A stretch of 64,000 nucleotides of DNA. Origin: Candidatus Poribacteria bacterium (lineage in GTDB: Bacteria > Poribacteria > WGA-4E > PCPOR2b). The notes beneath the pieces are model-generated. The model made no database searches. It was not told where the DNA came from and saw nothing but the letters and a program-made list of their open reading frames with translations. Both the position numbers and the translations under genes were made by a program. The stretch covers positions 2,337,527 through 2,401,526 of the forward strand of contig OY762266.1 of NCBI GenBank assembly GCA_963665285.1, read 5' to 3'. Below, piece after piece: positions 7,968-61,275 of the stretch. Positions within the stretch are counted from its first letter, which is position 1. Every line of letters begins with the position of its first letter.

Positions 7968-7998
7968 CGCAATTCATTGCGCGTCTTGAACATAGGTA
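7968..7998. repeat. REP-like palindromic repeat GTTTGTAGTAGCGCAATTCATTGCGCGTCTT (copy 1)
   Basis: 31-nt identity with 31196-31226. A variant lies at 55714-55734. It contains the hairpin GCGCAA-TTCA-TTGCGC. Confidence 0.5.
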
Positions 7999-8065
7999 AA
8001 TGCTTCTGATTTGCAGAAATTGTTGAGGTTGTTGATTCTCCTAGCGTCTATGGGTCTTTTCAATG

Positions 8066-15976: not shown

Positions 15977-17271
15977 CCCAATGTTGAAACATTGGGATTC
16001 TTAATAGACTGATTGGTAGACATTAGCATCTCCATGCTATTTTCTTGTTTCGACGAGACAAGCCACGTATTGCTGGTGTGGTCTTACTATCTCTCCACCC
16101 TGATAAATCGGGATCCTTTCGGACAAGCGTTTTACGTCTCCGTGTGTCCCCCGGCGACGTTTCTGAGGTTTATCGCAGCGTTAAGGTCTCTGTCTTGTGT
16201 ATGCCCACAATCGCTGCAATGGTAAGTCCTATCCGATAGTGACAGGTCTTTGTCTTTTGCCCCACAAGCCGAGCAAGTCTTACTGGACGGGTAGAAATTT
16301 TAACGCCTATCCGTTCTGCTTTGTAGGCAAGCATAGTGAGAAAACTGGATAGGGAAGTGTCCGATAATACCTTTGCAAGCCTGTGGTTTTTTAACATACC
16401 TGCAACATTCAGTGACTCAATTCCAATACGACTCGCACCATGGACGATAGCCGTTGTTGCTTGGTGTTGAGCGTCCTGTCGAATGCAGGTGATACGGTAG
16501 TGTAGTTTGGCAAGTTTCGCTTTCGTCTTATGCCAATTCCGACTCCCTTTTTTCCGACGGCTTAACTGACGTTGCAGCCGTTTTAGCTTGCGCTCGTAAC
16601 GCTTTAAGGCTTTGGGGTTTTCGTGATATATACCTTCGGACGTGACAGCTAAGTGCTTGATACCTACGTCAACACCAACAACAGGCAGATGTCGATTGTC
16701 AGCAATAGTATCGTTATCGAAAGTATCAACAGTGATAGAAGCAAACCAACGGTGCACCGTTTTACAAATAACAACCTTAACGATAGTGCCGAGGTGTCGA
16801 AGTTTTTGGAACATGCGAACCCAACCCATCTTGGGTAGTTTTATACGCTGTCCTTCGACGATAGTTGTGCCTCGACCCGCATCCGCTTGGAAACTTTGAC
16901 CCCGTGAACGCTTCTTGAACTTTGGAAAACGACTCTGACCTGACTGCCAACGTTTGACTGCACGCTGAAAGTTGAAGTAAATCGCATTATGAGCAGCGCG
17001 CTGATTGAGTGCTTTACACCAATCGTATTGCTCATGTTTGGTAGCGTTGAATCGCTTGTTTAATTCTATATGTGAACGCCATTGTCCTTCGTCCAAGCTA
17101 GCCTTAAAATCAGCAAGGACATGGTTATACGCAACACGAGCATAGCCACAGTGTTGAGCGAATTGTGTCGATTGAATGTTGTTGGGATCTAAAGCGATTT
17201 TGTGAGTTTTTAACATTGGAAGTGGCTTTAGAAAAAAGGTTCGCTGTCTGACCCAACGCTAAAGCATTGGG
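15977..17271 (-). mobile_element. IS200/IS605-family tnpB-only element (IS1341-type), approximate bounds set by subterminal hairpins
   Basis: Hairpins CCCAATG-TTGAAA-CATTGGG (15977-15996) and CCCAACGC-TAAA-GCATTGGG (17252-17271) flank the tnpB ORF. Both are followed by the shared CATTGGGATT. No tnpA present. Confidence 0.5.
16132..17216 (-). pseudogene. tnpB: TnpB (IS605 OrfB, RuvC-like RNA-guided nuclease family), frameshifted near the C-terminus
   Basis: RuvC-I (VGVDVGIKHLAV) and RuvC-II (IGIESLN) are in the annotated frame. The zinc finger and RuvC-III (NFYPSSKTCSACG...YHCSDCGHTQDRDLNAAINL) are encoded intact in another frame and end at the TAA at 16132-16134. The switch maps to the A4/T4 run at about 16296-16308. 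Confidence 0.75.
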
Positions 17272-27239: not shown

Positions 27240-27268
27240 TTGAAACCGCCGGAAAAACCTGATAGAAT
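27240..27268 (+). promoter_or_regulatory. sigma-70-like promoter candidate TTGAAA-N17-TAGAAT upstream of the multihaem cytochrome gene
   Basis: Hexamers and 17-nt spacer read directly from the sequence. The ATG follows at 27329. Confidence 0.35.
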
Positions 27269-27328
27269 TATACAATCCTTCCAAACACTTGTCAAACCCA
27301 AAACTACGGTCAAGAGGAAGCCCCAGCC

Positions 27329-31100: not shown

Positions 31101-31195
31101 GGTTCGATAATCACCGTTAAGGAGACTTATGACCCTGTTTTTTCTTAGGCAGAATTCAGGATAAAAGTATTATTGATAGGAGTTACGCACTTGAG

Positions 31196-31257
31196 TTTGT
31201 AGTAGCGCAATTCATTGCGCGTCTTTAAGGTAGTAGGCATACGCTGTATGCCGTAAC
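31196..31257. repeat. composite REP-like element: GTTTGTAGTAGCGCAATTCATTGCGCGTCTT (copy 2) + GTAGGCATACGCTGTATGCCGTAAC
   Basis: The first module is identical to 7968-7998. The second module (hairpin GGCATA-N5-TATGCC + GTAAC) matches 3170-3194. Confidence 0.5.
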
Positions 31258-42933: not shown

Positions 42934-44376
42934 TTAAATATCATAGTAGAGATGAAATTCGTGTGGATGCGGACGGAGGTTGACTGCATCGACCTCGTTT
43001 TCACGTTTATACTCTATCCATGTATCAATCACGTCCTGCGTGATTACATCGCCTTCGAGCAAGTAGTCATGGTCGTCCTCTAAGGCATCAAGTGCCTCAG
43101 CTAAAGAGCCTGGCGTCGATTCAATTTCTGCCAGTTCCTCCGGCTCCAGATCATACAGGTCTTTATCAAGCGGCTCACCGGGGTGAATCTGATTCCGGAT
43201 ACCGTCAAGACCCGCCATCAGCATTGCGCTAAAAGCGAGATATGCGTTACAGGAAGGATCTGGTGTACGGAGTTCCAGTCGCTTCCCTCCCTCGCTCTGA
43301 GAATAGACAGGAATGCGGATACACGCACTCCGGTTTCTTTGCGAGTATGCAAGATTCACCGGTGCCTCATAGCCCGGGACCAACCGCTTGTAAGAATTGG
43401 TTGTTGGTGCAATGATAGCACACAACGATGGCAGGTGCTTAAGGAGACCGCCGGCGTAGTATAACGCTGCCTCGCTCAACCCAGCATATCCCTGCGGATC
43501 ATAGAAGATGTTTTTTCCATCTTTCCATAAACTCTGATGGCAGTGCATGCCTGAGCCGTTGTCTTCAAAAAGCGGCTTGGGCATAAAGGTCGCTGTCATG
43601 TTGTGGGCGCGGGCTGTATTCTTGATAATATACTTGTACAGTGCCATCTTATCGCCCATCCGGGTCATGGTGTCAAATCGCACATCAATCTCACCCTGTC
43701 CACCGGTGCCGACCTCATGGTGGTGAAGCTCTACATCAACCCCGCAATCGATCATCTTGAGAATCATTTCAGATCGAATATCTTGTAGTGTATCCGATGG
43801 CGGAACGGGGAAATACCCTTCCTTGTAGCGCGGTTTGTATCCAAGGTTCGGTCCATCATAGTCGCCTGTATTTGGATTCCAAGTCCCTTTACCTGTATTC
43901 CAACTCCCTTCAACGGAGTCAACGGAATAAAAGCCTGAATGCTGGTTTTGACCATAGCGAACATCATTGAATACGAAAAATTCAGCTTCAGGTCCCCAAT
44001 AGCTGGTATCCGCAATTCCGGTGCTCTTGAGATACGCTTCCGCTTTTTGAGCGATATGCCGTACATCTCGACTATAGCTTTCTAGGGTGATTGGATCCTT
44101 AATGTTGCAAACGAGACTGAGTGTCGGAATTTTGCAAACCGGATCGACAATCGCTGTATCCGGATCCGGGAAAAGGAGCATGTCGCTTTCGTTAATCGCT
44201 TGGAAACCGCGAATACTTGAACCATCAAAACCGAGCCCATCTTCAAACAGATCTTCCTCAAACTCTGTTGCAGGAATCGAAAAGTGGTGCCACAAGCCAG
44301 GCAGATCCGTGAATTTAAAGTCAACAATTTTGATCTCTTTTTCTCTTGCAAATTCTACAACTTCACTTGGTGTCAT
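42934..44376 (-). CDS. glnA: glutamine synthetase, type I
   Basis: 480 aa. GS beta-grasp and catalytic-domain motifs ([20 protein letters not shown]). RBS TAAGGAG. Confidence 0.9.
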
Positions 44377-44819
44377 CTAAATTCTCCTTAAACATTAAAA
44401 TATTGAGCCAAGCAATGACGATTAAACTTAAGTAGGGTCGGCACTACCCAGCGAACTCACTAAGAACGCGTATGAGCAGCCTCCCAAGGAGAAACATTTT
44501 TACCACGTTTCATACACCCTACTCAACGAATTATTGGAAACAATGGAATTTGAAAACGGGACACCTCAAAGATATAGAGCAAGCGATATGCCAATAATCA
44601 AATCGCTGTCAAAATGAAAAACCAGCACCAATTTTTCTCTGCCCCGTCTTTTTCTTATTTGTAGCAGAGAGTTGGCTCTGATAGGCGGTTTGCCACTGAT
44701 TGTCTTATTATGTGAGGTATCCTTCTAGCAAAAAATTAGTGGTATAATATAAATGCCTTAATCCATAAATGCTGAATTATTGGGCAGATCACTGCTAAAG
44801 TTTTTAGCAATGTGATTAT

Positions 44820-45395
44820 CTACTGATTCAAATCCCTTACAAAACGACTGGCTTCCGGTTCAACTTGTCCCGCATACTTGTTACCCGGTTTTCGGCGATA
44901 GGGTACTTTTGCAGGCGAGGATAATTCTTCAAATGTAAACGCACAGATCCGCATACCGGGGTAGAGTTTAACAGGCATGCGCCCCAGATTTCCCAACTCC
45001 AATGTCGCAGTCCCAACCCAACCTGGATCAAAAAGCCCCGCTGTACTGTGGACAATAATACCCAACCTACCAAGGCTACTACGACCTTCGAGTCGTGCCA
45101 TCACATCGTCGGCGAGTTCGAGGGTTTCGAGGGTTGCCGCGAGGACAAATTCGCCCGGTTGCATGGTAAACGCCTCACCATTGGGAACTTCCACCTTGTG
45201 CATTAGTTCGTTGAGATCGATATCTTCGCGGAGATCGATATAAGGGTACTTACTGTGCTCAAACAACCGGAAGGTGTTCCCTAGCCGGAAATCAATGGAA
45301 CAGGAGCCGAGTTGTTTGGTGAGATCGGGGGTAGGAGCGATTTTGATTTTCCCCATCTCCTGATAACGAACAATATCCTGATCTGATAAAACCAT
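44820..45395 (-). CDS. dcd: dCTP deaminase
   Basis: MVLSDQDIVRYQEMGKIKI...GxxxLxxxR pattern of Dcd/dUTPase-fold enzymes, 191 aa. Start moved to the ATG at 45395, which has a GGGGAGG RBS. The longer ORF-track start has none. Confidence 0.8.
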   Translation of the reverse strand: MVLSDQDIVRYQEMGKIKIAPTPDLTKQLGSCSIDFRLGNTFRLFEHSKYPYIDLREDIDLNELMHKVEVPNGEAFTMQPGEFVLAATLETLELADDVMARLEGRSSLGRLGIIVHSTAGLFDPGWVGTATLELGNLGRMPVKLYPGMRICAFTFEELSSPAKVPYRRKPGNKYAGQVEPEASRFVRDLNQ

Positions 45396-45600
45396 CCGCC
45401 TCCCCTTTTCATTGCTGCTTAATTTGCTCTGTTCCGCAGCAGCGTATGATTCATTATATACTAAAGTCCCCAAAAATGTAAAGAGTAATTTCCTCGCAGT
45501 AGAATTTTGCACAGTAAGTGGAGAGTTGCTATATGTCAATCAGAACCATTTCTTCATATGGAAGTCTTTGATATGAATAGAAAATAGCCAGCAGCTTGGA

Positions 45601-46347
45601 TCACTTCGTAAATACGAGTTCTTCGGCATTCGTCCCCGCATCGGAAGCGAGATTCGTCAGTACCTCGGCGACCTCTTCCGGCTTGAATAGAGTGGACTGT
45701 GCAGCAGCAACAGCCGCTTCCGGTGATTCTCCACCCCTTTCTGCGATTTCGGCGATTGCTCTGAGTTTCAGGGGAGTATTAAGGTTCCCGGGACAAACGA
45801 CATGTACGCGGATACCTAACGGTTCGACTTGGTTCTTCAAGGTAAATCCCAACCCCCGCACACCGCCTTTGCTGGCACCGTAGGCGACAGATGCACTGGG
45901 ACCCGTCACCCCTGCTCCCGATGCGATCAGCACAATTACCCCGCCTCCACTCTTTTCCATCAATGGCACAGCATGTTTAGTGCACAGGAAGGTCCCCCTC
46001 AAGTTGACCCTGATGACTGCATCCCACGCTTCCGCATCGAACTGATCGATGCGTACCGCTGCACCTAGTAGGATGCCAGCACAGGTCACCAACGCATCAA
46101 GCCTTCCAAAGTCCTGTCTGACCGATCCCACCATTGCAGCAACGTCCGCCTCTTGAGAGACATCTGTCCGTATAAACTGGGCAGAGCCGCCCGCCGCTTC
46201 AATGGATTGGACAGTTGCCTTACCATCTGCCTCATTCAGATCGGCGATGATAACTTTTGCTCCCTCTCTTGCATACATCACGGCTGTAGCGGCACCGATG
46301 CCGGTCGCCCCACCAGTGACGAGGGCAATTTTATTTTGTAGTCGCAT
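45601..46347 (-). CDS. SDR-family oxidoreductase (FabG-like short-chain dehydrogenase)
   Basis: TGGATGIG cofactor motif, NAG, and the S...YxxxK catalytic triad. Confidence 0.85.
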   Translation of the reverse strand: MRLQNKIALVTGGATGIGAATAVMYAREGAKVIIADLNEADGKATVQSIEAAGGSAQFIRTDVSQEADVAAMVGSVRQDFGRLDALVTCAGILLGAAVRIDQFDAEAWDAVIRVNLRGTFLCTKHAVPLMEKSGGGVIVLIASGAGVTGPSASVAYGASKGGVRGLGFTLKNQVEPLGIRVHVVCPGNLNTPLKLRAIAEIAERGGESPEAAVAAAQSTLFKPEEVAEVLTNLASDAGTNAEELVFTK

Positions 46348-46422: not shown

Positions 46423-47526
46423 TTATCGCAATTTGAGGGTACTCAGTGCGACGAGCATCAAGATTAAACCAATAATCCAGAAACGGAGCACCACCTTCGG
46501 TTCGGGCCAACCGAGCTGCTCAAAATGGTGATGTAGCGGCGACATCCTGAACACCCGCTTTTTTCGCGTTTTATAAGAAACAACTTGGATGATGACCGAG
46601 AGTGCTTCCACCACAAAAATCCCACCGACAATCACAAGCAAGATCTCCTCTTTGATTAAGATAGCAATCGTTCCAAGTGCTGCGCCGAGAGCTAGTGAAC
46701 CCGTATCTCCCATGAAAACTTGTGCTGGGTGACAATTATACCATAAAAAACCCACACCGGCACCAATCAACGCAGCGCAGAAGATAGTCGCAGCCTCTCC
46801 ACTAGCAGGAAGGTGGGCGATGTCGAGATAATTTGCTAATTGTTGGTGGCTTGTAAGGTAGCCCAGTACGCCAAACGTGACTGCGACAAACAGAGTACAG
46901 CCAATTGCCAAGCCATCAAGCCCGTCCGTAAGATTCACTGCGTTCGACGCACTAACAATAACCAACGCTGCAAATGGAACGAAGAATATGCCGAGGTCCG
47001 GACGAAGTTGCTTAAAGAAAGGAATGATAATTGATGTCCTTTCGGTCAAACTGTCTTTGGGAACAGGTCCCCATTGGTAGAGGAAGTAGGCAATGGCGAG
47101 CGCGCCGACTGTTTGTAAACAGATCTTATGCCAACCTTTCAATCCGAGTGATTGTTGTTTGGTAATCTTCCGGTAATCGTCCAGAAAGCCGAGTCCGCCA
47201 AACCATACAAGGCTAAAGGTAAGAACAAGAATATAGGGCTGATCCAATCGCGCCCACAGAAAAATTGAAATCAGCACGGACGTGATAATCAGTACACCAC
47301 CCATTGTCGGCGTACCCTCCTTGCTGAAATGTGTTTCGGGACCATCATCCCGGACATGCTGACCAATCTTCAATTGTCTCAGATGTCGAATAACGAAGGG
47401 ACCTAAGATGAGGGCTATAAGTAGCGCAGTTACTGTTGCATAGATGGACCGAAAGCTGATGTAACGGAAAACATTCAGCGGCGAAAAAAACTCCGTTAAT
47501 TGTTCAAAAAATAGATAGTAGAGCAT
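46423..47526 (-). CDS. mraY: phospho-N-acetylmuramoyl-pentapeptide transferase
   Basis: Ten-TM MraY pattern with the conserved DD and HHH regions (SPLHHHFE). Confidence 0.9.
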   Translation of the reverse strand: MLYYLFFEQLTEFFSPLNVFRYISFRSIYATVTALLIALILGPFVIRHLRQLKIGQHVRDDGPETHFSKEGTPTMGGVLIITSVLISIFLWARLDQPYILVLTFSLVWFGGLGFLDDYRKITKQQSLGLKGWHKICLQTVGALAIAYFLYQWGPVPKDSLTERTSIIIPFFKQLRPDLGIFFVPFAALVIVSASNAVNLTDGLDGLAIGCTLFVAVTFGVLGYLTSHQQLANYLDIAHLPASGEAATIFCAALIGAGVGFLWYNCHPAQVFMGDTGSLALGAALGTIAILIKEEILLVIVGGIFVVEALSVIIQVVSYKTRKKRVFRMSPLHHHFEQLGWPEPKVVLRFWIIGLILMLVALSTLKLR

Positions 47527-47664
47527 AGGTAATTTTTGATACTAAGGTTTATCCTTTGGAAATTGGAAGCAATAAGAAGTGAGGAAGAAAAGAAAGTAAC
47601 TGCTTCCTTCCGCTTAACCGACAATTTCAAGCCAGATTCTGCCCGAAGTATTAAGTGCCAAATT

Positions 47665-49032
47665 TCAAGTTTCACGCATCAGTTCTTCCAAGACCTGCTC
47701 CAATTTTATCCCGCGCGACCCCTTGATAAGCACCGCATCGCCGGGTTGAGCGTATTGGATCAGTTCTTGTGCCGCTTGCTTCGGCGTATCACAGGAGATG
47801 ATGGACTCGATCCTGCCTTCTGCTCCATGAGCAATTGCGCGGCCCTGGGGACCAACGGTAATCAATAGATTGATGTTGGTCGGGATAACCTGTCCCGCTT
47901 TCAGGTGGAGCGTGCGAGAATGTTCACCAAGTTCAAGCATATCACCGAGGATTGCAATTCGCTTGCCAGCGATTTCGATATCGCTGAGAAATGTCAAAGC
48001 CGACTTGAGGGACTCCGGGTTTGAGTTATAGGCATCGTTGATAATGTGTAGGTCTTTGTGCAAAATCGGCTGCATCCGCATGTCTGCCGGTTGAAAACGC
48101 TCTAGCCCAGCACAGATCTCTGTCGGCGTTAAACCCGCCCAGAGACCAACGCCGGCGGCAGCGAGCGCGTTATAGATATTGTGTTTTCCCAGACAGGGTA
48201 AATGTACTCTGCCGATTTCGTCCCCACCAATCTTCAAAGTGAACGTAGGTTTCCCGAAACTGTCGATCTCAATTTCGCTTGCAGAAATATCTGCATCATT
48301 TTGCCAACCAAATGTGGTGATTTGACCACACACACGGACGGCAAGTCTCGGTGTCATCGGATCATCGGCGTTAAGGATGGCATGTTCGACATGCGTCAGC
48401 AACGCCCCTTTCTCCTCCACAACCCCTTCAATTGAACCGAGCAACTCCAAGTGCGCTGGTCCGATGTTGGTGATCACACCGACGGTCGGTGTGGTTATCT
48501 GCGACAACCGCTCAATCTCTCCGGGCCAACTGGTGCCAATCTCTAACACAGCAATCTCATCTGCTTCGCTAAGTTGCATCAATCGTGAAGGAATGCCAAT
48601 CTGGTTATTGTAACTTTTCTCGGATTTGAAAACGGAAAACCGCTGTGCCAACACAGAGGTTGTTATGTCCTTTGTCGTAGTTTTGCCGTTGCTGCCCGTG
48701 ATAGCGATGATCGGCAGATCGAACTTGCGGCGATGACAGTTGGCAATATCTCCCAAGGCAACGAGCGTGTCGTTTACCTGCACAATAATCGGCGGGGTAA
48801 GTTGGGATGCATCGGTTACCGGTTTTGAGACAACCGCCCCAATCGCGCCCTGCTGACACACGCCCTCTAGGAAGTTATGTCCATCGAATTTTTCACCGAC
48901 CAATGCGACAAAGAGGTCTCCCTTTTTAAGCGTCCGTGAATCCGTCGAAACCTGCGTTATCACGGTGCCGGGATTGCCTTGGATGAGATTACCCTGCGTT
49001 GCCTGTAGGATTTCAGTAATTGTGAGATTCAT
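47665..49032 (-). CDS. murF: UDP-N-acetylmuramoyl-tripeptide--D-alanyl-D-alanine ligase
   Basis: Mur ligase three-domain layout with P-loop ITGSNGKTTTKD. Confidence 0.9.
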   Translation of the reverse strand: MNLTITEILQATQGNLIQGNPGTVITQVSTDSRTLKKGDLFVALVGEKFDGHNFLEGVCQQGAIGAVVSKPVTDASQLTPPIIVQVNDTLVALGDIANCHRRKFDLPIIAITGSNGKTTTKDITTSVLAQRFSVFKSEKSYNNQIGIPSRLMQLSEADEIAVLEIGTSWPGEIERLSQITTPTVGVITNIGPAHLELLGSIEGVVEEKGALLTHVEHAILNADDPMTPRLAVRVCGQITTFGWQNDADISASEIEIDSFGKPTFTLKIGGDEIGRVHLPCLGKHNIYNALAAAGVGLWAGLTPTEICAGLERFQPADMRMQPILHKDLHIINDAYNSNPESLKSALTFLSDIEIAGKRIAILGDMLELGEHSRTLHLKAGQVIPTNINLLITVGPQGRAIAHGAEGRIESIISCDTPKQAAQELIQYAQPGDAVLIKGSRGIKLEQVLEELMRET

Positions 49033-49137
49033 GATGATGGGTGGGTTATAAGTAATTGTTTCCTGCGACCAGCCCGCTGGGACAGGTAATAATAGGAATC
49101 GCTATAGGGTGAAGCGGTTGAACAGATCGATTTGTCC

Positions 49138-49287
49138 CTATTCTCTGGTGTTTTCGTTGCCTGCGATTTTCTCAATTTTGTCTGCGATCCTTTCGATCGC
49201 ACGAACAGCTCGTAAAAGAAGCCAGACAGGAAGAATATACAAGGGTGCCATCAATAAGAGTGGGAAGAAAGCACTGACAAAGTCCAT
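49138..49287 (-). CDS. unannotated 49-aa small membrane protein between murE and murF
   Basis: ATG at 49287 preceded by GGGAGGTGA. MDFVSAFFPLLLMAPLYILPVWLLL (one TM helix) followed by a charged tail. Same strand as the dcw cluster. Missed by the 60-aa ORF cutoff. Confidence 0.4.
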   Translation of the reverse strand: MDFVSAFFPLLLMAPLYILPVWLLLRAVRAIERIADKIEKIAGNENTRE

Positions 49288-49338
49288 ATTGAGTCTCACC
49301 TCCCGGCACTGTGGTTGAGTCGAATTATTGCTCTAGCA

Positions 49339-50805
49339 CTACTTCAACTGCTCAAGAAATTCTCCTGCGATTTCTCGATCATCGAAATCAAATCGGACAC
49401 CATTGATTTCTTGATACGGCTCATGCCCCTTGCCCGCAATGGCGACGAGATCGCCCGCTTTTGCCCGCTCAATTGCATGACCGATCGCAGTCCGACGGTC
49501 CTGAATGAGGCCGTAACTTGCGCCGTCGGGTAAGCCTTCCACAATATCGGCGAGAATCGTATCTGGTTCTTCCGTGCGTGGGTTATCGGAGGTGATCACG
49601 CTGTGATCGGCGATGGCCGCCGAGATATTGCCCATCTTCGGACGTTTACCACGGTCTCGGTCTCCGCCGCAGCCAAAGACGGAGATTAAACTGCCCTGCG
49701 TAATCTTTCGTGCAGCGGTCAACAGGTTTTCCAAACCGTCAGGTGTATGCGCATAGTCTACGACAACGGCGAAAGGTTGTCCTCGGTCAACTAACTCAAA
49801 TCGTCCCGGTACAACTGTGGATTCCAGTCCTGCTTGGATCGCCTCAAGCGGGCAGTCGTGGTGTACCCCTATCCCAATCGCAGCGAGAGCGTTATATAGG
49901 TTGTAATCTCCCAGCAGACGCAGATTTGCTGAGATTTTTCCCTTCGGTGTGTTTGCAACGAATGAGAGCCGTTTGAGTGTTGATTCGACATTGGAGACCG
50001 ACAGATCCGCCGGCCCCTCAACCCCAAAGGTAAGGCATGGGGAATTGGTTTGATGTCGGATTGAATCGGAGGCGGGGTCGTCTGTGTTAAGGATTGCCAG
50101 ACCGTTGTCAAGATTGAGTTGCTGAAACAACATCATCTTGGCGTTCAGATACTCCTCCATCGTCTCATGGTAGTCGAGATGATCTTGTGTCAGATTGGTG
50201 AAAACCGCTGTTTCAAAGGTGAGTCCAGCCAAGCGGTGCTGTGCGAGCCCTTGCGATGAGGTTTCCATGATGACATAATCTACCCCAGCATCCGCAATGT
50301 CTCGGAACAGTTCGTGAAGCGTCAATGGCTCAAGTGTCGTAATCGTCGGCTCCACGAAGACATCTGCGTAATGGGTTCCAACCGTGCCCATGAACCCCGA
50401 CTTCAGTCCCGCAGCGTTGAAGATCGAATGCGCTAAATGTGCTGTTGAAGTCTTGCCGTTTGTACCGGTAATGCCAATCAGTTTCAGCCGATCCGCCGGA
50501 TTCCCGTACCAGTTTGCTGCGATGAGTGAGAACGCGATGCGTCCGTTTGACGTTTGGATATAGGTAACGTCGGGCGGCATTGACTCCGGTTTCTCCCCAA
50601 CAATCGTCGTTGCACCGTTTTGGATGGCTTGTGGAATAAAGGTGTGTCCATCAACATTGACGCCTTCATAGCAGACAAAGGCGTACCCCGGCTCCACCGC
50701 CCGACTATCGCTTGCAACGCCGGTAATCTCTTTATCAAGCCCTCCAGTTGATGAGAGGATATTTACTCCTTGGAGTAAGCGATGTAAGTTCACAACCTTG
50801 TCCAC
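49339..50805 (-). CDS. murE: UDP-N-acetylmuramoyl-L-alanyl-D-glutamate--2,6-diaminopimelate ligase
   Basis: P-loop ITGTNGKTST plus a DNPR motif region (SDNPRTE) that indicates meso-DAP specificity. Confidence 0.9.
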   Translation of the reverse strand: MDKVVNLHRLLQGVNILSSTGGLDKEITGVASDSRAVEPGYAFVCYEGVNVDGHTFIPQAIQNGATTIVGEKPESMPPDVTYIQTSNGRIAFSLIAANWYGNPADRLKLIGITGTNGKTSTAHLAHSIFNAAGLKSGFMGTVGTHYADVFVEPTITTLEPLTLHELFRDIADAGVDYVIMETSSQGLAQHRLAGLTFETAVFTNLTQDHLDYHETMEEYLNAKMMLFQQLNLDNGLAILNTDDPASDSIRHQTNSPCLTFGVEGPADLSVSNVESTLKRLSFVANTPKGKISANLRLLGDYNLYNALAAIGIGVHHDCPLEAIQAGLESTVVPGRFELVDRGQPFAVVVDYAHTPDGLENLLTAARKITQGSLISVFGCGGDRDRGKRPKMGNISAAIADHSVITSDNPRTEEPDTILADIVEGLPDGASYGLIQDRRTAIGHAIERAKAGDLVAIAGKGHEPYQEINGVRFDFDDREIAGEFLEQLK

Positions 50806-50850
50806 CTCCGACCTTCAGAAAATCTTATAACAATAGTCTTATAGTCTCAA

Positions 50851-52620
50851 TTAATGTAGTGCTGATTGAGTTTCCACATAGCTTGGGTCTGAGTCCTGAA
50901 CAAAGAGATTCTTTTGACTCAAATAGCGCATCGCTTCACTCGCAATCTTTTGGAAAATTGGGGCTGTGACATGGCTGCTCAACGGAGCACCCGCTGGCTC
51001 ATCAACGACAACAATAATTGAGAGTAGCGCATCCTCCGCCGGAAGAAACCCTGCAAAAGTAGCGACCACTTTGCCTTCGACGTATCCCTTTCCTCGCTCC
51101 GCTTTCTGTGCTGTGCCGGTTTTGCCAGCAACAGCATATCCTTCGACACGCGCTCTCAGTCCACCGCCAACTTCCGTCACCCCGACAAGCATTTGTGTCA
51201 TTGCTTGTGCAGTTTCTACAGAAATGACGCGACGAATCGGCTGAGGCGAGGATTGCTCTATCAGATTTCCATCCTTATCAATAATTTGTCGAGTGATATA
51301 CGGTTGCAGCAGTACGCCTTTGGTAGCAATAACGTTGATGGCATTTAACATCTGTATGGGTGTCACAGAAATCCCCTGCCCAAACGGAACAGCGGCAATC
51401 GTGTAGTCATCCCATTTCTGGATACCCCTCAGGCTGCCGATACGTTCGTAAGGCAGATCGATACCGGTTTTTTCACCGAATCCAAACCGGCGCGTATAGC
51501 CCTCCAACTGCTCTTTATCAAGATATCTTGCAGCCTTAAGGATACCGATATTACTGGATTTTGCGATAATTTCACTGAGTGTTAGCCACGCATTGGGTTT
51601 AATGTCGTGAACAACATGCCCATTGGACAAACGATATTCCCCCATCTCGCAATACTCACGCGAGTACGGAGACATCAGTTTCTCGTTGAGGAGTGCAGCA
51701 GCGGTAACAATCTTAAACACAGAACCGGGTTCGTATTGCATCCAGATAGCGCGATTTCGCTTGGCTGATTCTTCGCTCCTTGAGTAGTGATTGAGATTGT
51801 AGTTCGGATAATTTGCTAATGCCAAAATTTCGCCGCTTTTGGAGTGCATGACGATTGCACTCCCCGACCTCGCTTGCCACTCCTCACAACCGGCAATCAG
51901 TTCCCTTTCTGTGATATGTTGGATGTACTCATCAAGCGTAAGGACAACGCTACGTCCGTGTTGCCCGCCTTGCTGATAAAGTTGGGGTGGACGAATCGGG
52001 CGTCTCTTACCATCGGCAGTGATCCGATTACTTGTTGATTGTGATTCTCGGAGGTTGTTATTGTTACTGGTACTTAGGTAGGCATTATATTGATGTTCGA
52101 TCCCATCAATACCTCTATTTTCAAAATTGGTATATCCAATAATATGGGACGCTAGTTCGTCTTTTGGGTAGGAGCGTTTTCCATGGGTCCGATATCCGAT
52201 CCCATAAATGCTTTTAGTGATTTGGCGGATATCGTTAAGCCGTTCATAATCTAAGTTCCGTTTCAGCCAAACAAAACGCCTTTTCTTTTTCTGCAGTACC
52301 GACAAGAGTCTATCTTCCGAGACATCGAGTAGCGGCGCAAGTTTACTAGCAATCTCATCAGGCTTATCTCTCAGCACTTTTGGATCTGCATAGACCGAGA
52401 TTAAGTCCTGATTGATTGCAAAGACGCTTCCGTGCCGATCCAAAATCGTAGCGCGCTTTGTCTGAGAGCCCACTTGCGTGTTACGCTGATTTTCAGAACG
52501 TTTGCGCAGCTCCTGACCGTGTACATACTGGATTAGAAATAAGCGTCCTATCAATAATCCTAAGCAGAGTTCCAAACCGACCCATACGATTGTAATCCGG
52601 GACAAAGGTATATTGTTCAT
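50851..52620 (-). CDS. ftsI: peptidoglycan D,D-transpeptidase (class B PBP, FtsI-like)
   Basis: N-terminal TM anchor, PBP dimerisation domain, and a transpeptidase domain with SxxK (SVFK), SxN and KTG (KTGT) motifs. Confidence 0.85.
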   Translation of the reverse strand: MNNIPLSRITIVWVGLELCLGLLIGRLFLIQYVHGQELRKRSENQRNTQVGSQTKRATILDRHGSVFAINQDLISVYADPKVLRDKPDEIASKLAPLLDVSEDRLLSVLQKKKRRFVWLKRNLDYERLNDIRQITKSIYGIGYRTHGKRSYPKDELASHIIGYTNFENRGIDGIEHQYNAYLSTSNNNNLRESQSTSNRITADGKRRPIRPPQLYQQGGQHGRSVVLTLDEYIQHITERELIAGCEEWQARSGSAIVMHSKSGEILALANYPNYNLNHYSRSEESAKRNRAIWMQYEPGSVFKIVTAAALLNEKLMSPYSREYCEMGEYRLSNGHVVHDIKPNAWLTLSEIIAKSSNIGILKAARYLDKEQLEGYTRRFGFGEKTGIDLPYERIGSLRGIQKWDDYTIAAVPFGQGISVTPIQMLNAINVIATKGVLLQPYITRQIIDKDGNLIEQSSPQPIRRVISVETAQAMTQMLVGVTEVGGGLRARVEGYAVAGKTGTAQKAERGKGYVEGKVVATFAGFLPAEDALLSIIVVVDEPAGAPLSSHVTAPIFQKIASEAMRYLSQKNLFVQDSDPSYVETQSALH

Positions 52621-52739
52621 AGGGTATTATGCAGAAGTGTAACAGTGTGCACTACTGAGGAGATTCTTCAAGGAAGTAGGTATTCCAGAATACCTCAAAG
52701 GTTAAGGGACTGCACAATTAAACGCTCGACTCACAGATC

Positions 52740-53033
52740 CTAATCAGCGTGCAGCTCACGGGCTGACTCGGAGGGTTGAACCATCTGGAGATCTTTCGCG
52801 ATTTCGTGAATCCGTTCAATCGAAGTGAGCCTTGTTTCCTGTATTTTGAGCCTATTGATTTCGTTGTGGAGCTGATCTCTTCGCTGCTCAAAGTCCTCAC
52901 GCATTTGCAGCGCAACCTTGTGCTGGCTTGACGCAAACCATGCACTCAGAAAAAAGATACCGATGTAAATGGCGAGTGCGAAGTATGCAAAGGGATGAAA
53001 TTTTGACGATGGAGCTGGTTTTTGGTATTTCAT
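52740..53033 (-). CDS. ftsL: cell division protein FtsL-like
   Basis: 97 aa with a single TM helix and a coiled-coil segment, positioned between rsmH and ftsI. Confidence 0.65.
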   Translation of the reverse strand: MKYQKPAPSSKFHPFAYFALAIYIGIFFLSAWFASSQHKVALQMREDFEQRRDQLHNEINRLKIQETRLTSIERIHEIAKDLQMVQPSESARELHAD

Positions 53034-53093
53034 GGTTAAAATAGTCTCTAATTGTTCCTTTGTAAACCATCTCGTCCGGTTTTTAAGAAACGT

Positions 53094-54110
53094 TTAATCT
53101 GGCGTTTTAGATTCGTGGATCTTCATCGCAACCCGTAATTTCGCACTTCGGGACCGAGGATTGCGTCGAATTTCATCGGGGGTTGGAACTATTGGACGCT
53201 TGGTCAGTATTTCAAGAGTAGGTGTATGCTGACATATACAGATAGGAGTCTTCGGCGGGCAGATGCAAGCACGTGAGAGGGCGCGGAATTGTTCTTTAAC
53301 AATTCGATCTTCGAGAGAATGGAAAGAGATGATGCATAAGCGTCCACCGGGCTTCAAAGCGGCAGAGGCACAATGTATCCCGGAATGCAGGTTTTTAAGT
53401 TCATCGTTAATATAAATTCTTAACGCCTGAAAAACCCTTGTCGCGGGATGGATGCGCCAACCCGTTGATTTGTGGGGAATCGCATCCAGAACGAGTTCAG
53501 CCAGTTGACCCGTTGTTGAGATTGGCTTGCGTTTTCGAGCGCGAACAATCTGGCGCGCAATCTTTTTAGACCAACGCTCTTCACCGAATTGTGTAAAAAT
53601 CGTTGCGAGCGCGTCCTCTGGATGGCGGTTCACGACGCGCGCTGCTGATAGAGATTGGCTGGCATCCATCCGCATATCTAAGGGACCAGAGCGATTGAAA
53701 CTAAACCCTCTTGCCGGCGTATCAAGCTGCAAAGATGACACCCCTAGGTCTAGTAAAATGCCATCAACTTGCGGAATCGTGGCTTCCTGCGAATCTCCAC
53801 TGCAATGCAGTTGAGGTAGCTGATCTAAGTGAGCAAAATTATCACTAACAAATGCTACCCGCTCCTCATATTCGCGCAGCCTTTCCTCGGCAATAGCCAA
53901 CGCCTCCGCGTCCAAATCAATCCCAAGTAGGAACCCTTTCGGCGCAGATTTTTGTAAAACGACAGCGGCATGCCCACCTAATCCAACCGTGCCATCCACA
54001 TAAAAACCGTGGTTTTTCGGTTGTAAAAACTGAATCACTTCATCAACTAGAACAGGTATGTGGTCCTCACCCATCTCTTTCTGAGTCTCCCTCGTTTTCG
54101 TTCTGCTCAA
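53094..54110 (-). CDS. rsmH: 16S rRNA (cytosine1402-N4)-methyltransferase
   Basis: HIPVLVDEV...DGTVGLGGH...SAM-binding motifs of MraW/RsmH. The start could instead be the internal ATG at 54074. Confidence 0.9.
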   Translation of the reverse strand: MSRTKTRETQKEMGEDHIPVLVDEVIQFLQPKNHGFYVDGTVGLGGHAAVVLQKSAPKGFLLGIDLDAEALAIAEERLREYEERVAFVSDNFAHLDQLPQLHCSGDSQEATIPQVDGILLDLGVSSLQLDTPARGFSFNRSGPLDMRMDASQSLSAARVVNRHPEDALATIFTQFGEERWSKKIARQIVRARKRKPISTTGQLAELVLDAIPHKSTGWRIHPATRVFQALRIYINDELKNLHSGIHCASAALKPGGRLCIISFHSLEDRIVKEQFRALSRACICPPKTPICICQHTPTLEILTKRPIVPTPDEIRRNPRSRSAKLRVAMKIHESKTPD

Positions 54111-54171
54111 TCAGGCATACACCCCTTTCCCGCGTTGATTTGGGAGGTGCTTACCAATCTTGCGTGCAATG

Positions 54172-55556
54172 CCCCATCCCTTTAGGGTGGGGATGTAGCA
54201 CGCCCAAGTGCGTTGTTAGTCAAAAAACGGTTGAGATTGCAGGTAAAAGATGCTACAGTTACCTTGGCTTTCGTGAGAGGGCGCAACTTCGCTGCTTAGT
54301 GGCACCTCTCACCTCCAATTGCGTGGACATGAAATCCAGATAGCCAATTGCATAATGAAAACCTACAAGTTCAAAATGTATAGCAACCACAATAATCGTG
54401 AGTTGCAAAAAACGATTGACAGCCATGCTCATGTGTGGAATCACTTTGTGGCGTTGTGTCGCCGATACTATGCTATCTACGGGACATATCCGGGTAAGAA
54501 AGCACTGATGCGCCACTTAACCAAGTTGAAGCGGCTTCCCCGCTTTGCCCATTGGAATCAGTTGCCGAGTCAATCGTTGCAAGACGTAATAGACCGACTT
54601 GATAAAGCGTACTCTAAACTGTTTACTGACCGCAAAAGCGGCAAACGTTCCGGTCGTCCCCGTTTCAAGAGACGTAAACTATACAAGTCCTACACGCTCA
54701 AGCAAGCGGGTTGGAAACTGCTACAAGACAACTATATCCGTATCGGCAAACGGATATACCGATATTTCAAAAGTCGGAAAGTCTTAGGCACGCCGAGACG
54801 CTGTACGATTAAGCGGGACAGCGTAGGGGACGTATGGCTAATCATTCTGACAGATCATGTAGAGATGCCCTTGAATCGACCCACGACGGGTAACAGCGCG
54901 GGGTTCGATTTTGGACTCAAGCGGTATCTCACCGGGTCCGACTCCAATGACTACGACTCTCCACAATTCTTCAAACGGAGTCTCAACGCTATCAAACGTG
55001 CAAACCGCAACCGCTCACGAAAGGTTAAAGGTTCAAACAACCGTGAACGTGCGAGACTCAATGTTGCACGGAAACACCGACGTATTGCCAATCAAAGAGC
55101 CGACTTCCATTGGCAGCTAGCGCATGAGCTAACAGACCGGTATGATTGGATTTCACTGGAGACCCTCACCATTAAGGGCATGAAAAGCCTTTGGGGTCGT
55201 AAGGTCTCTGATTTGGGGTTCTATGACTTCGTCCAGAAACTGAAGTATATTAACTCTAAGAAACAGCATCGTGAAGTCCGATTCATTGATAAGTGGTATC
55301 CATCAAGCCGAACCTGTCACGTCTGTGGCGCAATTAATCAAGATCTGAACCTTCGTGACAGAACATGGCAATGTCCAAATTGCCACACAGAGTTGGATAG
55401 AGACCGTAACGCTGCGGTCAATATTCATAGGGTAGGGGCATCTACCCTCTCAGAAGAGGTCGTAAGTCCCAGTTCACCGGGCTAACTTCGTTGATAGAGC
55501 AATTCGACACCTTAAAAGGGAACGGGTGAGAATACCCACCCTTTAGGGTGTGGGAG
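54172..55556 (+). mobile_element. IS200/IS605-family tnpB-only element (IS1341-type), approximate bounds set by subterminal hairpins
   Basis: CCCCATCCC-TTTA-GGGTGGGG (54172-54192) upstream and CCCACCC-TTTA-GGGTGTGGG (55535-55556) downstream of tnpB share the CCCTTTAGGGTG core. No tnpA. Confidence 0.5.
54355..55485 (+). CDS. tnpB: TnpB (IS605 OrfB family RuvC-like, putatively RNA-guided, endonuclease), apparently intact
   Basis: MKTYKFKMYSNHNN N-terminus. RuvC-I (AGFDFGLKRYL), RuvC-II (ISLETLTIKGM), zinc finger (CHVCG...CPNCH) and RuvC-III (DRDRNAAVNI) all present in one frame. Confidence 0.85.
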   Translation: MKTYKFKMYSNHNNRELQKTIDSHAHVWNHFVALCRRYYAIYGTYPGKKALMRHLTKLKRLPRFAHWNQLPSQSLQDVIDRLDKAYSKLFTDRKSGKRSGRPRFKRRKLYKSYTLKQAGWKLLQDNYIRIGKRIYRYFKSRKVLGTPRRCTIKRDSVGDVWLIILTDHVEMPLNRPTTGNSAGFDFGLKRYLTGSDSNDYDSPQFFKRSLNAIKRANRNRSRKVKGSNNRERARLNVARKHRRIANQRADFHWQLAHELTDRYDWISLETLTIKGMKSLWGRKVSDLGFYDFVQKLKYINSKKQHREVRFIDKWYPSSRTCHVCGAINQDLNLRDRTWQCPNCHTELDRDRNAAVNIHRVGASTLSEEVVSPSSPG

Positions 55557-55713
55557 TATGTCAATAAACAGCCCAGACCACTCACCTCAAACAGGAGGAT
55601 TATAGCACAGGCGCATCCCATGTCAAGCGTAAAATTGGCATAGAAGGCGAGGCACAAAAACGTAGGTAGACACGTTCAAGCAATCCTCCACAGATAGAAG
55701 TTACACACTTCAG

Positions 55714-55734
55714 TCTGTAGTAGCGCGTTCATTG
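55714..55734. repeat. variant copy of the GTAGTAGCGC...CATTGC REP-like repeat
   Basis: CTGTAGTAGCGCGTTCATTGC compared with GTTTGTAGTAGCGCAATTCATTGCGCG at 7968 and 31196. Confidence 0.35.
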
Positions 55735-55866
55735 CTTTCTCCTCTCCCCTGCTTTCGGGGGAATAAAGGGGGACAGGGGAGTTAGAGGGGGTGCGGTTCA
55801 ACGCAGCGCAAGACTGTGAACGTTCAACTGCGTCAGTCCTAACAGATTAGAAATCGTCAACAAATA

Positions 55867-56433
55867 TCACATGCCCTCTGTGAGGATCTGGTGGAGAGGA
55901 ACGTCCCAAGTCTGCGGATAGGTATCTGTCACAATTTGCGCTTCGTAAGCTAATCCAATCCAAACTGCTTGCGGACATTGCGGCAGGAATCGATCATAGA
56001 AGCCAGCACCGTATCCGATCCGATAGCCCTTGGGGTCGAAAGCAACACCGGGAACAAAGATTAAATCGATCTGGTTCAAAGGAAAAGGAGGACAGGTTTC
56101 CCTATTCGGCTGGTACACACCGTATGGATGGAGAACAAGATCTTTTTTCGCATCTACGATACGGTGTGGTGTAAGGGTTCGCTGTTTCATACGCATCACA
56201 GGGGCAAGCGCAATCTTATTCCGAACCAACAGATAATCAAGCAGACCACCGGTCTCTACCTCACTTCGCATACTGAGGTAGACTAGGACTGCATTGGCTC
56301 GGTTCGCCTCAATCAGGTTGATTGCATGGTCAACAATCCGTCGGCTCAACTTAGCTCTTACACTTGGTGGGAGGCTGTCTCGTTTGCGGAGGACTTCCGT
56401 CCGAAGCCGCTCGCGCTCCTGTCTCTGGTTCAT
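55867..56433 (-). CDS. 5-formyltetrahydrofolate cyclo-ligase
   Basis: MTHFS family pattern (VLVYLSMRSEVET...GYGAGFYDRFL). Start moved to the ATG at 56433, which has GAGGGGA upstream. Confidence 0.8.
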   Translation of the reverse strand: MNQRQERERLRTEVLRKRDSLPPSVRAKLSRRIVDHAINLIEANRANAVLVYLSMRSEVETGGLLDYLLVRNKIALAPVMRMKQRTLTPHRIVDAKKDLVLHPYGVYQPNRETCPPFPLNQIDLIFVPGVAFDPKGYRIGYGAGFYDRFLPQCPQAVWIGLAYEAQIVTDTYPQTWDVPLHQILTEGM

Positions 56434-56453
56434 TTGGTTGGTATCCCGTCCCC

Positions 56454-57773
56454 TCACGCCTGCCATTCGATCTGGTCAATATACTTGGCAAGGGTATCGC
56501 GGAAGGTTGATGGCTTCATTTTGAGCAGTTTTGCGGCTTGCGTTTTGTTTCCCTGTGCTTTTTTCATTGCCCAACCAATGAGTTCACGCTCGGTCGACCG
56601 GATAATCTCTTGGAAGGAGATCTCACTCAACGCCTCATCTAAGCTGACCTGTGCTGGCAGTTTCAACTCAAGCGGAATATCATCGGCGGTAATATCTGCT
56701 CCGTCTCCAACCGTTACAAGTCGTTCGATCACGTTTTCTAATTCGCGGATGTTGCCGGGCCATGGATATACTGTGAGCACCTCGACAGCTTCGGGAGCGA
56801 TGTGGATGGCGGCATTGGGCGAGAATAGATCTAAAAAGTGATTAATCAAGAGAGGAATATCCTCGACCCGTTCACGTAACGGTGGCAGAAAAATCGGGAC
56901 AACGTTTAGGCGGTAGAAGAGATCGTCCCGAAATTCTCCATTCTGAACTTTCGTACGCAAATTCTTGGTTGTCGCAGCGATAATCCGCACGTCCCTCCTT
57001 TGTGTGTTTCTGTCTAGGTTTAGCTGCTGCCCCTCTAGTGCCGGTAGAAATTTGGCCTGCAGTGCATCGGGAAGGGCATCAATATCTTTAAGAAAAAGCG
57101 TCCCTTTACGCCCAAACTCGTCTTCCGTCTGCTTGTCTCCGAATAACTCTCGATCTAATGTTTCGGTAAGTACTCCTGAACAGTTTACGATCCTAAAGGG
57201 ATGGAGTCTGCGCGCGCTGTTAAAATGAATTGATTTTGCAACGAGCGTTTTTCCTGTGCCATGTTCCCCATAGATTAGCACAGTACTCTGGGTGTCGGAG
57301 ACATTTTCAAGCAGGTCAAAGAGGTCTTGTATCGCTTGACTTTTCCCGATAATATGATGGTATGGAGAGCGTCCTTTCATGGGAACTTTTAGCTGTGAAC
57401 GCTGTTTACCTCTGCCGTGGAGCATTTTCAGTTTATCCAGCATCTGAATCAGTTCTTCGCTGGAAAAAGGTTTCTTGATATAGTTATACGCCCCAAATTT
57501 CATTGCTTCTACAGCGGTTTCAACACTCGCATAGGCAGTCATGACAATCACAACAATATGGGGCTGCTCTTTCTGGACGCGCTTGAGAAATTCAATTCCG
57601 TGCATCTTTGGCAGGCGCAGATCGGTAACAAGAACATCGAAATGTTCGTTCTGAACAAGTTGTAGTCCAATCGCTGGAGACTCAACCGCGATGGTATCGT
57701 AGTTAGCCTCGCGCAAATCATCACGTAGTGTAATTAGTTTGATTTTTTCATCATCAACAACCAGTACTTTCAA
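56454..57773 (-). CDS. sigma-54-dependent response regulator (NtrC/Fis family: REC + AAA+ + HTH)
   Basis: REC domain (VVDDE...D...K), AAA+ sigma-54 interaction domain (GEHGTGKTLVAKSIH, plus a GAFTGA-like region) and a C-terminal Fis-type HTH. It starts with TTG overlapping the HK stop (TTGA). Confidence 0.85.
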   Translation of the reverse strand: MKVLVVDDEKIKLITLRDDLREANYDTIAVESPAIGLQLVQNEHFDVLVTDLRLPKMHGIEFLKRVQKEQPHIVVIVMTAYASVETAVEAMKFGAYNYIKKPFSSEELIQMLDKLKMLHGRGKQRSQLKVPMKGRSPYHHIIGKSQAIQDLFDLLENVSDTQSTVLIYGEHGTGKTLVAKSIHFNSARRLHPFRIVNCSGVLTETLDRELFGDKQTEDEFGRKGTLFLKDIDALPDALQAKFLPALEGQQLNLDRNTQRRDVRIIAATTKNLRTKVQNGEFRDDLFYRLNVVPIFLPPLRERVEDIPLLINHFLDLFSPNAAIHIAPEAVEVLTVYPWPGNIRELENVIERLVTVGDGADITADDIPLELKLPAQVSLDEALSEISFQEIIRSTERELIGWAMKKAQGNKTQAAKLLKMKPSTFRDTLAKYIDQIEWQA

Positions 57774-59893: not shown

Positions 59894-61275
59894 AAATATA
59901 CTGTAGTTTGGACAATTTGTTTTGGCTTCATGCGTCTGTGTCACAGGTTTGTTGAATATTGGGCGATTTACTTTTTTGCGAAGTTGTCGCAGAAAATAGT
60001 CGTCTACCAATTAAATCGCGTAGATAGCGCACCATCAATCCGCGTGTCAACTTCTTAGGTCGATACCAATCAATGCCCAATTCCTGACACACCCACTCGA
60101 CGGTTATTGGCTGGCTTGTGTTAGCAATGATGGTAAAGACCAATTGGGTCAGACAAACAGCGACAAAACTGAGTTGTACCCATCGACCGATGCTTTTTTT
60201 GGATTTGACCCGATATTGGTCAAACCCGAAGTGTTGTTTAACGTCCCGAAAAGCGGTCTCAATGGTCCATCTTTTCTGATAATATCGCACAATCTGAGAT
60301 AACTCCAGAGTCAAGTCAGTGGTGTACACACAGAAGTATCGAAACGACTTAGCTTTTTTGGGTCGGGTTCGTATCACCACCAGACGCACCGGCTGTGGAC
60401 ACATTTTAGTAAGTGCTTCTACCGATGCGATGGCGTACCGTTTGTTGTCAATGTCAATCGTTGCATACCGTAGATATGGCAGGTGTAAGCGTTTGCCATA
60501 CTTCTTGGGACGTCCCCGTTTGGAACCCTTCGTTACATCAGCCAATCGATAGAAGACCGCATTGGACTTGGCACGACACAACAGATGATGCCCGGCTTTA
60601 AGCACACAGGCAAACACTTTGCGCCGATTGAACCCCCGGTCAAAGATAATCAGTCCACGGGGAATGTGAGCGCATATCCGCTTCAGAACAGCGTTGCTGC
60701 TATCTCGCTTTGTCTTGGGACATATCAGGTTCACCCAAACGGGAAACAGTATCGTCTCCGTAACCGTGCTACAAAGCAACCCCAATGCGCCAAACTGATG
60801 TCCTGAGTGAAACTTCGATTGATTTCTGTTGCGCTTGTGGTAGCGATGATTTCTAAAAAAGTGAAGTCCAAATTGCTTGTCTGATGTCTTTATCGCTTGG
60901 GTCTCATCGTAAACGTAGACCCAGTTGGCAAAGCACCCTTGCAGCAACTTAATCAGATGTTTAGCAACCACATCGGCGTCCCACTTGCCACGGGAGAGGA
61001 ACTTCACCAAAGAGTGGTAACCGCTTGGCGGTCGAACCGCTTGATAAATGTCAGTCACCGTCGCACTGCGGGGGGCAGTGATAAACCCTACAATAAATGT
61101 GCTAAACAGGGTGAAACTTTGACTGTTGAATAACGGACGAAAATCGGTTAAAATACTCGCGAGGCAGAATATGAGGTACATTAACTTCTCCTTTCAAAAT
61201 TGTGATGGATTTCTGAAAGGATAACCTCTTTTCTGCCTCTTTGCACTTAAAATTGTCTAAACTTTAGTAAAATAT
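59894..61275 (-). mobile_element. IS4/IS701-like insertion sequence with imperfect 26-bp terminal inverted repeats
   Basis: IRs AAAATATACTGTAGTTTGGACAATTT (59894-59919) and AAATTGTCTAAACTTTAGTAAAATAT (61250-61275) match at 19 of 26 positions in inverted orientation. They enclose a single DDE transposase gene. Confidence 0.65.
59928..61181 (-). CDS. DDE transposase, IS4/IS701-like (DDE_Tnp_1)
   Basis: 417 aa with the YYxxRWxIExxFRDxKQxxG C-terminal signature of IS4-superfamily transposases. Confidence 0.85.

Follow-up and report, generated by a model that had tools for sequence, protein, structure and literature searches.

How is an essential operon expressed when a transposable element stands directly in front of it? 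The question is raised by a 64-kb segment (hereafter the window) of the chromosome of a member of Candidatus Poribacteria, an uncultured phylum of sponge symbionts. In the window the genes rsmH-ftsL-ftsI-murE-murF-mraY of a partial division and cell wall (dcw) operon lie on the minus strand (46423-54074), and an open reading frame (ORF) for the transposon protein TnpB precedes them. Every gene of the operon gave a strong Pfam match, in the order that an initial annotation had proposed. The tnpB ORF lies on the plus strand between rsmH and the gene for 5-formyltetrahydrofolate cyclo-ligase, divergent from rsmH, and the OrfB_IS605 and Cas12f1-like TNB domains of its product bore out the assignment to an IS605-type insertion sequence (IS). 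The same annotation had placed this element in the position of mraZ and the mra promoter (Pmra), and had suggested that expression of the operon might depend on a promoter inside the element or created by its end. The analysis reported here points to a different answer. The best explanation as a whole, to which a probability of about 0.7 is given, is that an IS608-type tnpB element has split the leader of the operon, which would now be read through from its native promoter on the far side of the element.

Relatives were collected by a scan with the RsmH protein, keeping one genome per species. This gave 17 Candidatus Poribacteria genomes: 16 close relatives (L001-L015 and L017; 79-90% RsmH identity) and a distant one (L016; 62%). 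In all 16 close relatives the genes for a histidine kinase, a sigma-54 response regulator and the cyclo-ligase are followed on one strand by rsmH-ftsL-ftsI, and the same genes lie upstream of rsmH, on its strand, in the window (cyclo-ligase at 55867-56466). In most close relatives 208-245 bp separate the cyclo-ligase gene from rsmH; the spacer reaches up to 604 bp in three genomes with small insertions of their own. When the relatives' spacers were compared with the window by BLAST, each was split into three pieces, giving two window-specific insertions, at 54153-55564 and 55700-55841. A base-level comparison refined the first to 54155-55564. The empty site in the relatives reads ...GGGTGCTTGC|TAAACAG... 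and the occupied site in the window ...GGTGCTTAC|CAATCTTGCG...(element)...GTATGTCAA|TAAACAGCCC..., with the left boundary at 54155, directly after a TTAC at 54151-54154.

The element starts 80 nt upstream of the ATG of rsmH at 54074 and 44 nt upstream of a TTG at 54110. The initial annotation was right that the spacer is short; its value of about 60 nt is replaced by one of these two, depending on the start codon. The position 54110, given there as the beginning of the cluster, holds as the TTG start of the maximal rsmH ORF (53094-54110), but the likely start of the gene is the ATG, which agrees with the public gene call and with full-length alignments of the relatives' homologues.

The same loci were searched for mraZ. 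With the E. coli MraZ protein as the tblastn query, no MraZ-like ORF was found upstream of rsmH at any of the 17 Poribacteria loci, and the 64-kb window gave no match at E ≤ 0.1. The query was validated by its own matches: among 63 non-Poribacteria loci from the same RsmH scan it found mraZ immediately upstream of rsmH in 35, across many phyla and with E values down to 1e-23. The canonical arrangement of a cluster led by mraZ immediately upstream of rsmH was thus seen neither in the window nor at the 17 Poribacteria loci. The tnpB element, for its part, was present at the orthologous site in none of the 17 relatives. A comparison of synteny with related genomes had been named beforehand as the test of the idea that the element occupies the place of mraZ; it returned the same mraZ-less arrangement with no IS at the site, and the idea had to be given up.

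That mraZ and Pmra were displaced or destroyed when the element inserted is an expectation drawn from E. coli-type clusters, in line with the 35 of 63 non-Poribacteria loci in which mraZ precedes rsmH. Against it stand 17 Poribacteria genomes with no mraZ and no IS at the site, and the empty-site alignment, in which the insertion is a clean 1410 bp with complete flanks and no flanking sequence lost. This explanation was rejected and can practically be dismissed. Judged from these alignments, nothing was displaced by the element, because Poribacteria have no mraZ in front of rsmH. The absence of mraZ from a whole lineage is not unusual, an example being the cyanobacteria, where it is absent from all those examined (PMC8871954). 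Among the papers searched, none named both mraZ and Poribacteria.

In other respects the operon resembles the E. coli-type dcw cluster with mraZ and Pmra. The first genes are the same and follow the same order, rsmH-ftsL-ftsI-murE-murF-mraY, and here too they would lie behind one strong promoter, predicted from a consensus site (see below). The differences are that the Poribacteria loci have no mraZ in front of rsmH, that the cluster in the window stops after mraY, and that an IS separates its predicted promoter from the operon.

The nature of the element was established from its copies. A protein search with TnpB returned thousands of homologues, many at 70-95% identity. Three close copies (L082, L083 and L084) were fetched, with TnpB proteins of 91-95% amino acid identity, left ends of 93.5-96.5% nucleotide identity and right ends of about 91-95%. 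They lie between different pairs of neighbours: PhyH and SAM hydroxide adenosyltransferase; lipid A acyltransferase and pterin-4a dehydratase; and Ldh_2 and peptidase M32. In their DNA the match to the window runs from the first base behind TTAC up to the terminal TCAA and no further. All four copies are flanked as TTAC|CAATCTTGCG...GTATGTCAA|, and their flanks diverge right after TCAA. The limits of the element were set at 54155-55564 because the empty-site alignment and the three copies in other contexts share the same ends. The left end (200 bp), tnpB (1131 bp) and the right end (79 bp) fill these limits and leave no room for a tnpA gene (Y1/HUH transposase); none was found inside the 1410 bp, and the element was classed as a non-autonomous, tnpB-only derivative for this reason.

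The ends and the mobility of the element are those of the IS200/IS605 family. Terminal inverted repeats and a target-site duplication are both absent, and each end carries a subterminal, imperfect palindrome with a TTTA loop. In all four copies a fixed TTAC abuts the left end and a fixed TCAA closes the right end. Mobility is evident from the different contexts of the copies and from the absence of the element at the 17 orthologous sites. The closest parallel is IS608 of Helicobacter pylori, a Y1/HUH element of this family, which inserts 3' of a TTAC lying 19 nt 5' of the foot of the left hairpin and cleaves after TCAA, 10 nt 3' of the right hairpin (PMC3201880). The element in the window likewise lies 3' of TTAC and has its terminal TCAA at the same distance of 10 nt 3' of the right hairpin foot, and its left hairpin begins 17 nt after the cleavage point, as against 19 nt in IS608. 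Both lack terminal inverted repeats and a target duplication, and both carry tnpB. They differ in their hairpin sequences, in the host phylum and in the lack of tnpA here; by analogy with IS1341-type or tnpB-only derivatives, the element would be mobilised in trans, its transposition being a prediction from the family. It is an ordinary non-autonomous member of the IS200/IS605 family and probably remains functional. The relatives have TTGC or CTCG, not TTAC, at the insertion spot, and this difference (one base in the case of TTGC) may explain why only this lineage was hit.

A candidate for the native promoter of the operon lies on the other side of the element. A consensus scan of 53900-56000 gave a single 12/12 sigma-70 site, at 55626-55599, on the strand of rsmH. 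In the whole window two 12/12 sites were found where 0.02 were expected; the other, TTGACA-N17-TATAAT, is at 27267-27295 on the minus strand. The motif TTGACA-N16-TG-n-TATAAT is present in all 16 close relatives and also in the distant L016, which keeps it despite having a different upstream gene, on the opposite strand. The end of the -10 hexamer lies 99-116 nt before the rsmH ATG in 13 of the 16 close relatives. The distance is 80 nt in L008, because the start codon is placed differently, and 236 and 201 nt in L003 and L013, because of small leader insertions of their own. This is strong comparative evidence that the conserved 12/12 site is the promoter of the operon, its functional use being predicted.

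With the element removed in silico, the distance from the -10 hexamer to the rsmH ATG is 114 nt; with the element it is 1524 nt. The promoter has been pushed 1410 bp further upstream and now lies about 1.5 kb from rsmH. If transcription starts about 7 nt after the -10 hexamer (near 55592), the insertion point would be at about +28 of the leader. The doubt that the initial annotation had cast on the expression of the division genes was justified in that the element does separate the operon from its promoter, but the reason is not the one given there.

The two parts of the native leader (54120-54154 and 55565-55592, minus strand) can form a helix, ATTTGGGG/CCCCAAAT, that brackets the insertion site. 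It is kept in the relatives with some G-U pairs and a few compensatory changes, and its apical loop, into which the element inserted, varies from 0 to about 27 nt. RNAalifold gave a total of -7.7 kcal/mol with a covariation term of -1.56, so that covariation support for the helix is weak.

The explanation that best accounts for this arrangement is as follows. In this lineage no mraZ stands in front of the partial dcw operon; a perfect extended -10 sigma-70 promoter site lies ahead of rsmH, with about 107 nt of leader between them. The element, with TCAA as its right end, entered this leader 3' of TTAC, presumably by the single-strand peel-and-paste route of its family. It left 80 nt of leader with rsmH and the promoter with the first ~28 nt of the leader beyond the element. 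The native promoter would then read through the whole element into rsmH, giving a leader of about 1.5 kb that would be antisense to the omega-RNA (the predicted guide RNA of the element) and to tnpB. Such convergent read-through transcription would dampen the expression of tnpB. The element's own candidate promoter, a site conserved in the other copies as TTGAAA, would oppose a much stronger convergent transcription.

Read-through from the native promoter is the most likely mode of expression because neither the left end nor the retained 80 nt showed an outward-facing sigma-70-like promoter, and because the operon and its leader tolerate insertions in the relatives (L003, L013 and L009). In the consensus scan no minus-strand sigma-70-like -35/-10 pair of at least 8/12 was found between 54352 and the rsmH ATG. 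The nearest such sites, at 54382-54352 and 54422-54392, are weak, with 8/12 matches and 19-nt spacers. The promoter inside or created by the element end that had first been suggested was therefore not recovered. If the left end or the retained 80 nt held an outward-facing or hybrid promoter, this would fit the behaviour of IS ends in other families, which are known to supply outward promoters, and the 80-nt remnant is conserved among the relatives and could hold a signal missed by a consensus scan. Given the lack of such sites on the minus strand from 54352 to 54075, however, such a promoter is unlikely, and the ends of IS200/IS605 elements are not known as sources of outward promoters.

The path that transcription from the native promoter would take was also inspected. 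The minus strand of the element holds terminator-like hairpins at no higher frequency than shuffled sequences do (4 found against 2.0 ± 1.3 expected), and the first 123 nt of the read-through RNA fold no more stably than shuffles (z = -0.82).

Several points nevertheless weigh against read-through. The chief doubt is that an untranslated antisense leader of 1.5 kb would be a natural substrate for Rho-dependent termination. At 55541-55524, about 50 nt along the path, there is a weak terminator-like hairpin with a poor U tract (tail GTTCCCTTTT). Promoters for alternative sigma factors, or weak sigma-70 promoters, would escape the consensus scan, and promoter use, start site and read-through are all predictions from the DNA. 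The insertion may also be a minority allele rather than fixed in the sampled population. An exact-protein look-up of TnpB matched the source locus only.

In another explanation the insertion is polar and weakens or silences rsmH while internal promoters serve the remaining, essential genes (ftsL, ftsI, the mur genes and mraY), or else it is a recent, mildly deleterious or minority allele. E. coli can do without RsmH. There are weak promoter-like sites upstream of ftsL (53066-53038) and of murE (50850-50822), as well as a 10/12 promoter-like site inside ftsI, and in L009, where a tnpB lies between ftsL and ftsI, the downstream genes also need a solution. Promoter-like sites occur in the operon at chance frequency, however (8 against 9.7 ± 2.9 expected in shuffles), and the contig with the insertion has been reported from two ENA samples, which makes this account unlikely. 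JGI metagenomes were scanned with the left flank plus TTAC for alleles of the same strain, whether with or without the element, and no match was returned.

The protein encoded by the element was analysed in its own right. TnpB shows full-length homology with the structures of ISDra2 TnpB (8bf8/8exa; residues 2-361, E 1e-41). In the alignment the D-E-D triad of the RuvC domain is kept at the D191/E278/D361 columns (GFDFG, SLETL and DRDRNAA), and the C-terminal CxxC...CxxC zinc finger is kept as CHVCG/CPNC. By analogy with ISDra2 TnpB (Karvelis et al. 2021, PMC8612924), the flank that adjoins the right end on its 3' side is expected to serve as the guide, and the transposon target as the transposon-associated motif (TAM). 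The right end here would encode the omega-RNA scaffold, with its 3' end at 55535..55564; the guide would be the flank of about 16 nt 3' of the right end (55565-55580, plus strand); and the TAM would be TTAC, the insertion target (54151-54154), giving TTAC+TAAACAGCCCAGACCA as the predicted target of TnpB and its omega-RNA. The conservation of the right end among the copies, with flanks that diverge after TCAA, is consistent with an omega-RNA derived from the right end and a guide from the 3' flank. An Rfam search of 53900-56000 in E-value mode gave no match, and so no curated omega-RNA or leader family. The system resembles ISDra2 TnpB with its omega-RNA (reRNA) in full-length homology, RuvC residues and zinc finger, and differs from it in the TAM, predicted as TTAC here and TTGAT in ISDra2, and in that omega-RNA and cleavage are predictions here.

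The position of tnpB next to a promoter region also recalls the TldR proteins, which are nuclease-dead, TnpB-like repressors, likewise of the TnpB family and encoded beside a promoter region. In place of the loss of RuvC residues and of transposon ends or mobility that marks the TldR type, the element in the window has intact catalytic residues, both ends intact and several mobile copies in different contexts. On this evidence it is a mobile element and not a domesticated regulator. Its co-option as a regulator of the dcw operon, through a TldR-like repressor or through an antisense omega-RNA or tnpB transcript, is extremely unlikely. The omega-RNA with its guide (55565-55580) would be perfectly complementary to the leader transcribed from the native promoter, but the RuvC triad is intact, which does not fit the nuclease-dead TldR type; the element is absent from all relatives and has close copies in unrelated contexts, as expected of a mobile rather than a fixed regulatory sequence; and the DNA that matches the guide is preceded by TCAA rather than the TTAC TAM. 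Transcription through the element from the strong dcw promoter, antisense to tnpB and the omega-RNA, and opposing transcription from the element's own promoter could together make up a convergent-transcription or antisense switch that couples dcw expression to the activity of an RNA-guided transposon nuclease. Such a switch is regarded as very unlikely.

The element is not the only insertion in these spacers. The second window-specific insertion, between the cyclo-ligase gene and the promoter, is flanked by an imperfect direct repeat (ACAGATAGAA / ACAGATTAGAA) and contains G-rich/C-rich sequence able to form hairpins. Its ends resemble 31177-31218 of the window and, in inverted orientation, 9330-9557 of L007, and it looks like a member of a family of miniature inverted-repeat transposable elements (MITEs). 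L003 carries an element of about 120 bp (5765-5885) with perfect 12-bp inverted ends, AGGACTTACGCA...TGCGTAAGTCCT, directly after the TATAAT of the rsmH promoter, with ATAAT duplicated. In L013 about 100 bp with a hairpin (~5830-5930) lie in the leader, near the point of the tnpB insertion, and in L007 about 370 bp of repeated GGGGCAAGATGCCCCGCCTAC-like units (~5480-5850) lie upstream of the promoter. The stretch from the cyclo-ligase gene to rsmH thus looks like a hot spot for insertions.

An independent TnpB insertion has occurred inside the operon itself in L009 (OZ244950.1), where a tnpB (7655-8644, plus strand), co-oriented with the operon, has widened the gap between ftsL and ftsI from about 200 bp to 1.5 kb. 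It belongs to a second family and is 75% identical to 16170-17216 of the window. Because L009 has another tnpB family inside the operon, a preference of TnpB elements for landing in the dcw leaders of Poribacteria is a possibility. The related sequence in the window is a second, distantly related tnpB (16150-17216, minus strand; 348-aa ORF with HTH_OrfB_IS605 and OrfB_IS605 domains), which is probably frameshifted, because its zinc-finger part matches in another frame (16296-16150).

Around the locus, the dcw cluster is truncated; it ends at mraY and is followed by genes for a short-chain dehydrogenase, dCTP deaminase and glutamine synthetase (glnA) at 42934-46347 on the minus strand, in place of murD-ftsW-murG. 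On the other side, directly upstream of the histidine kinase gene, a DDE transposase ORF (417 aa; 59928-61181, minus strand; Pfam DDE_5 and DDE_Tnp_1) marks another IS near the locus. The features are collected in Table 1.

Table 1 Features of the split dcw leader, the tnpB element and the operon (coordinates of the window)
Feature	Position	Strand	Description and basis
Native dcw (rsmH) promoter, predicted	55599..55626	-	TTGACA, 16 nt, TGcTATAAT; 12/12, extended -10; predicted transcription start near 55592
Promoter-proximal native leader	55565..55598	-	Cut off from the gene; contiguous with the 54154 position in relatives
Retained native leader	54075..54154	-	80 nt attached to rsmH; aligns with relatives up to the junction
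Non-autonomous IS200/IS605-family element, complete, tnpB only	54155..55564	+	1410 bp; empty-site alignment and three copies
Left subterminal imperfect palindrome	54172..54192	+	CCCCATCCC-TTTA-GGGTGGGG; read from the sequence, conserved in 4 copies
Candidate tnpB promoter	54231..54259	+	TTGAGA-17-TGcTACAGT; 9/12 matches, extended -10; points away from rsmH
tnpB	54355..55485	+	376 aa, start ATG 54355; predicted active RNA-guided nuclease; Pfam PF01385 and PF07282
Right subterminal palindrome	55535-55554 (feature 55535..55564)	+	CCCACCC-TTTA-GGGTGTGGG; conserved in 4 copies
Right cleavage site TCAA	55561-55564	+	10 nt 3' of the right hairpin foot
Second lineage-specific insertion, MITE-like	55700..55841		~142 bp, between the cyclo-ligase gene and the promoter; missing in all relatives
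rsmH (mraW)	53094..54074	-	326 aa; heads the partial dcw operon; Pfam PF01795, E 1e-119
ftsL	52740-53033	-	Pfam
ftsI	50851-52620	-	Pfam
murE	49339-50805	-	Pfam
murF	47665-49032	-	Pfam
mraY	46423-47526	-	Pfam

The element is of a known kind in a notable position, and the general knowledge of the IS200/IS605 family and of dcw clusters is unchanged by this case. What it offers for this phylum is the location of a probable dcw promoter, with a perfect sigma-70 consensus that at least 17 genomes share, and a precisely mapped case in which an IS608-type tnpB element interrupts the 5' leader of an essential operon. Should metatranscriptomes be available, the locus would be a natural test of how far read-through extends through a TnpB element, of the silencing of tnpB and its omega-RNA by antisense transcription, and of the tolerance of dcw expression to expansion of the leader.

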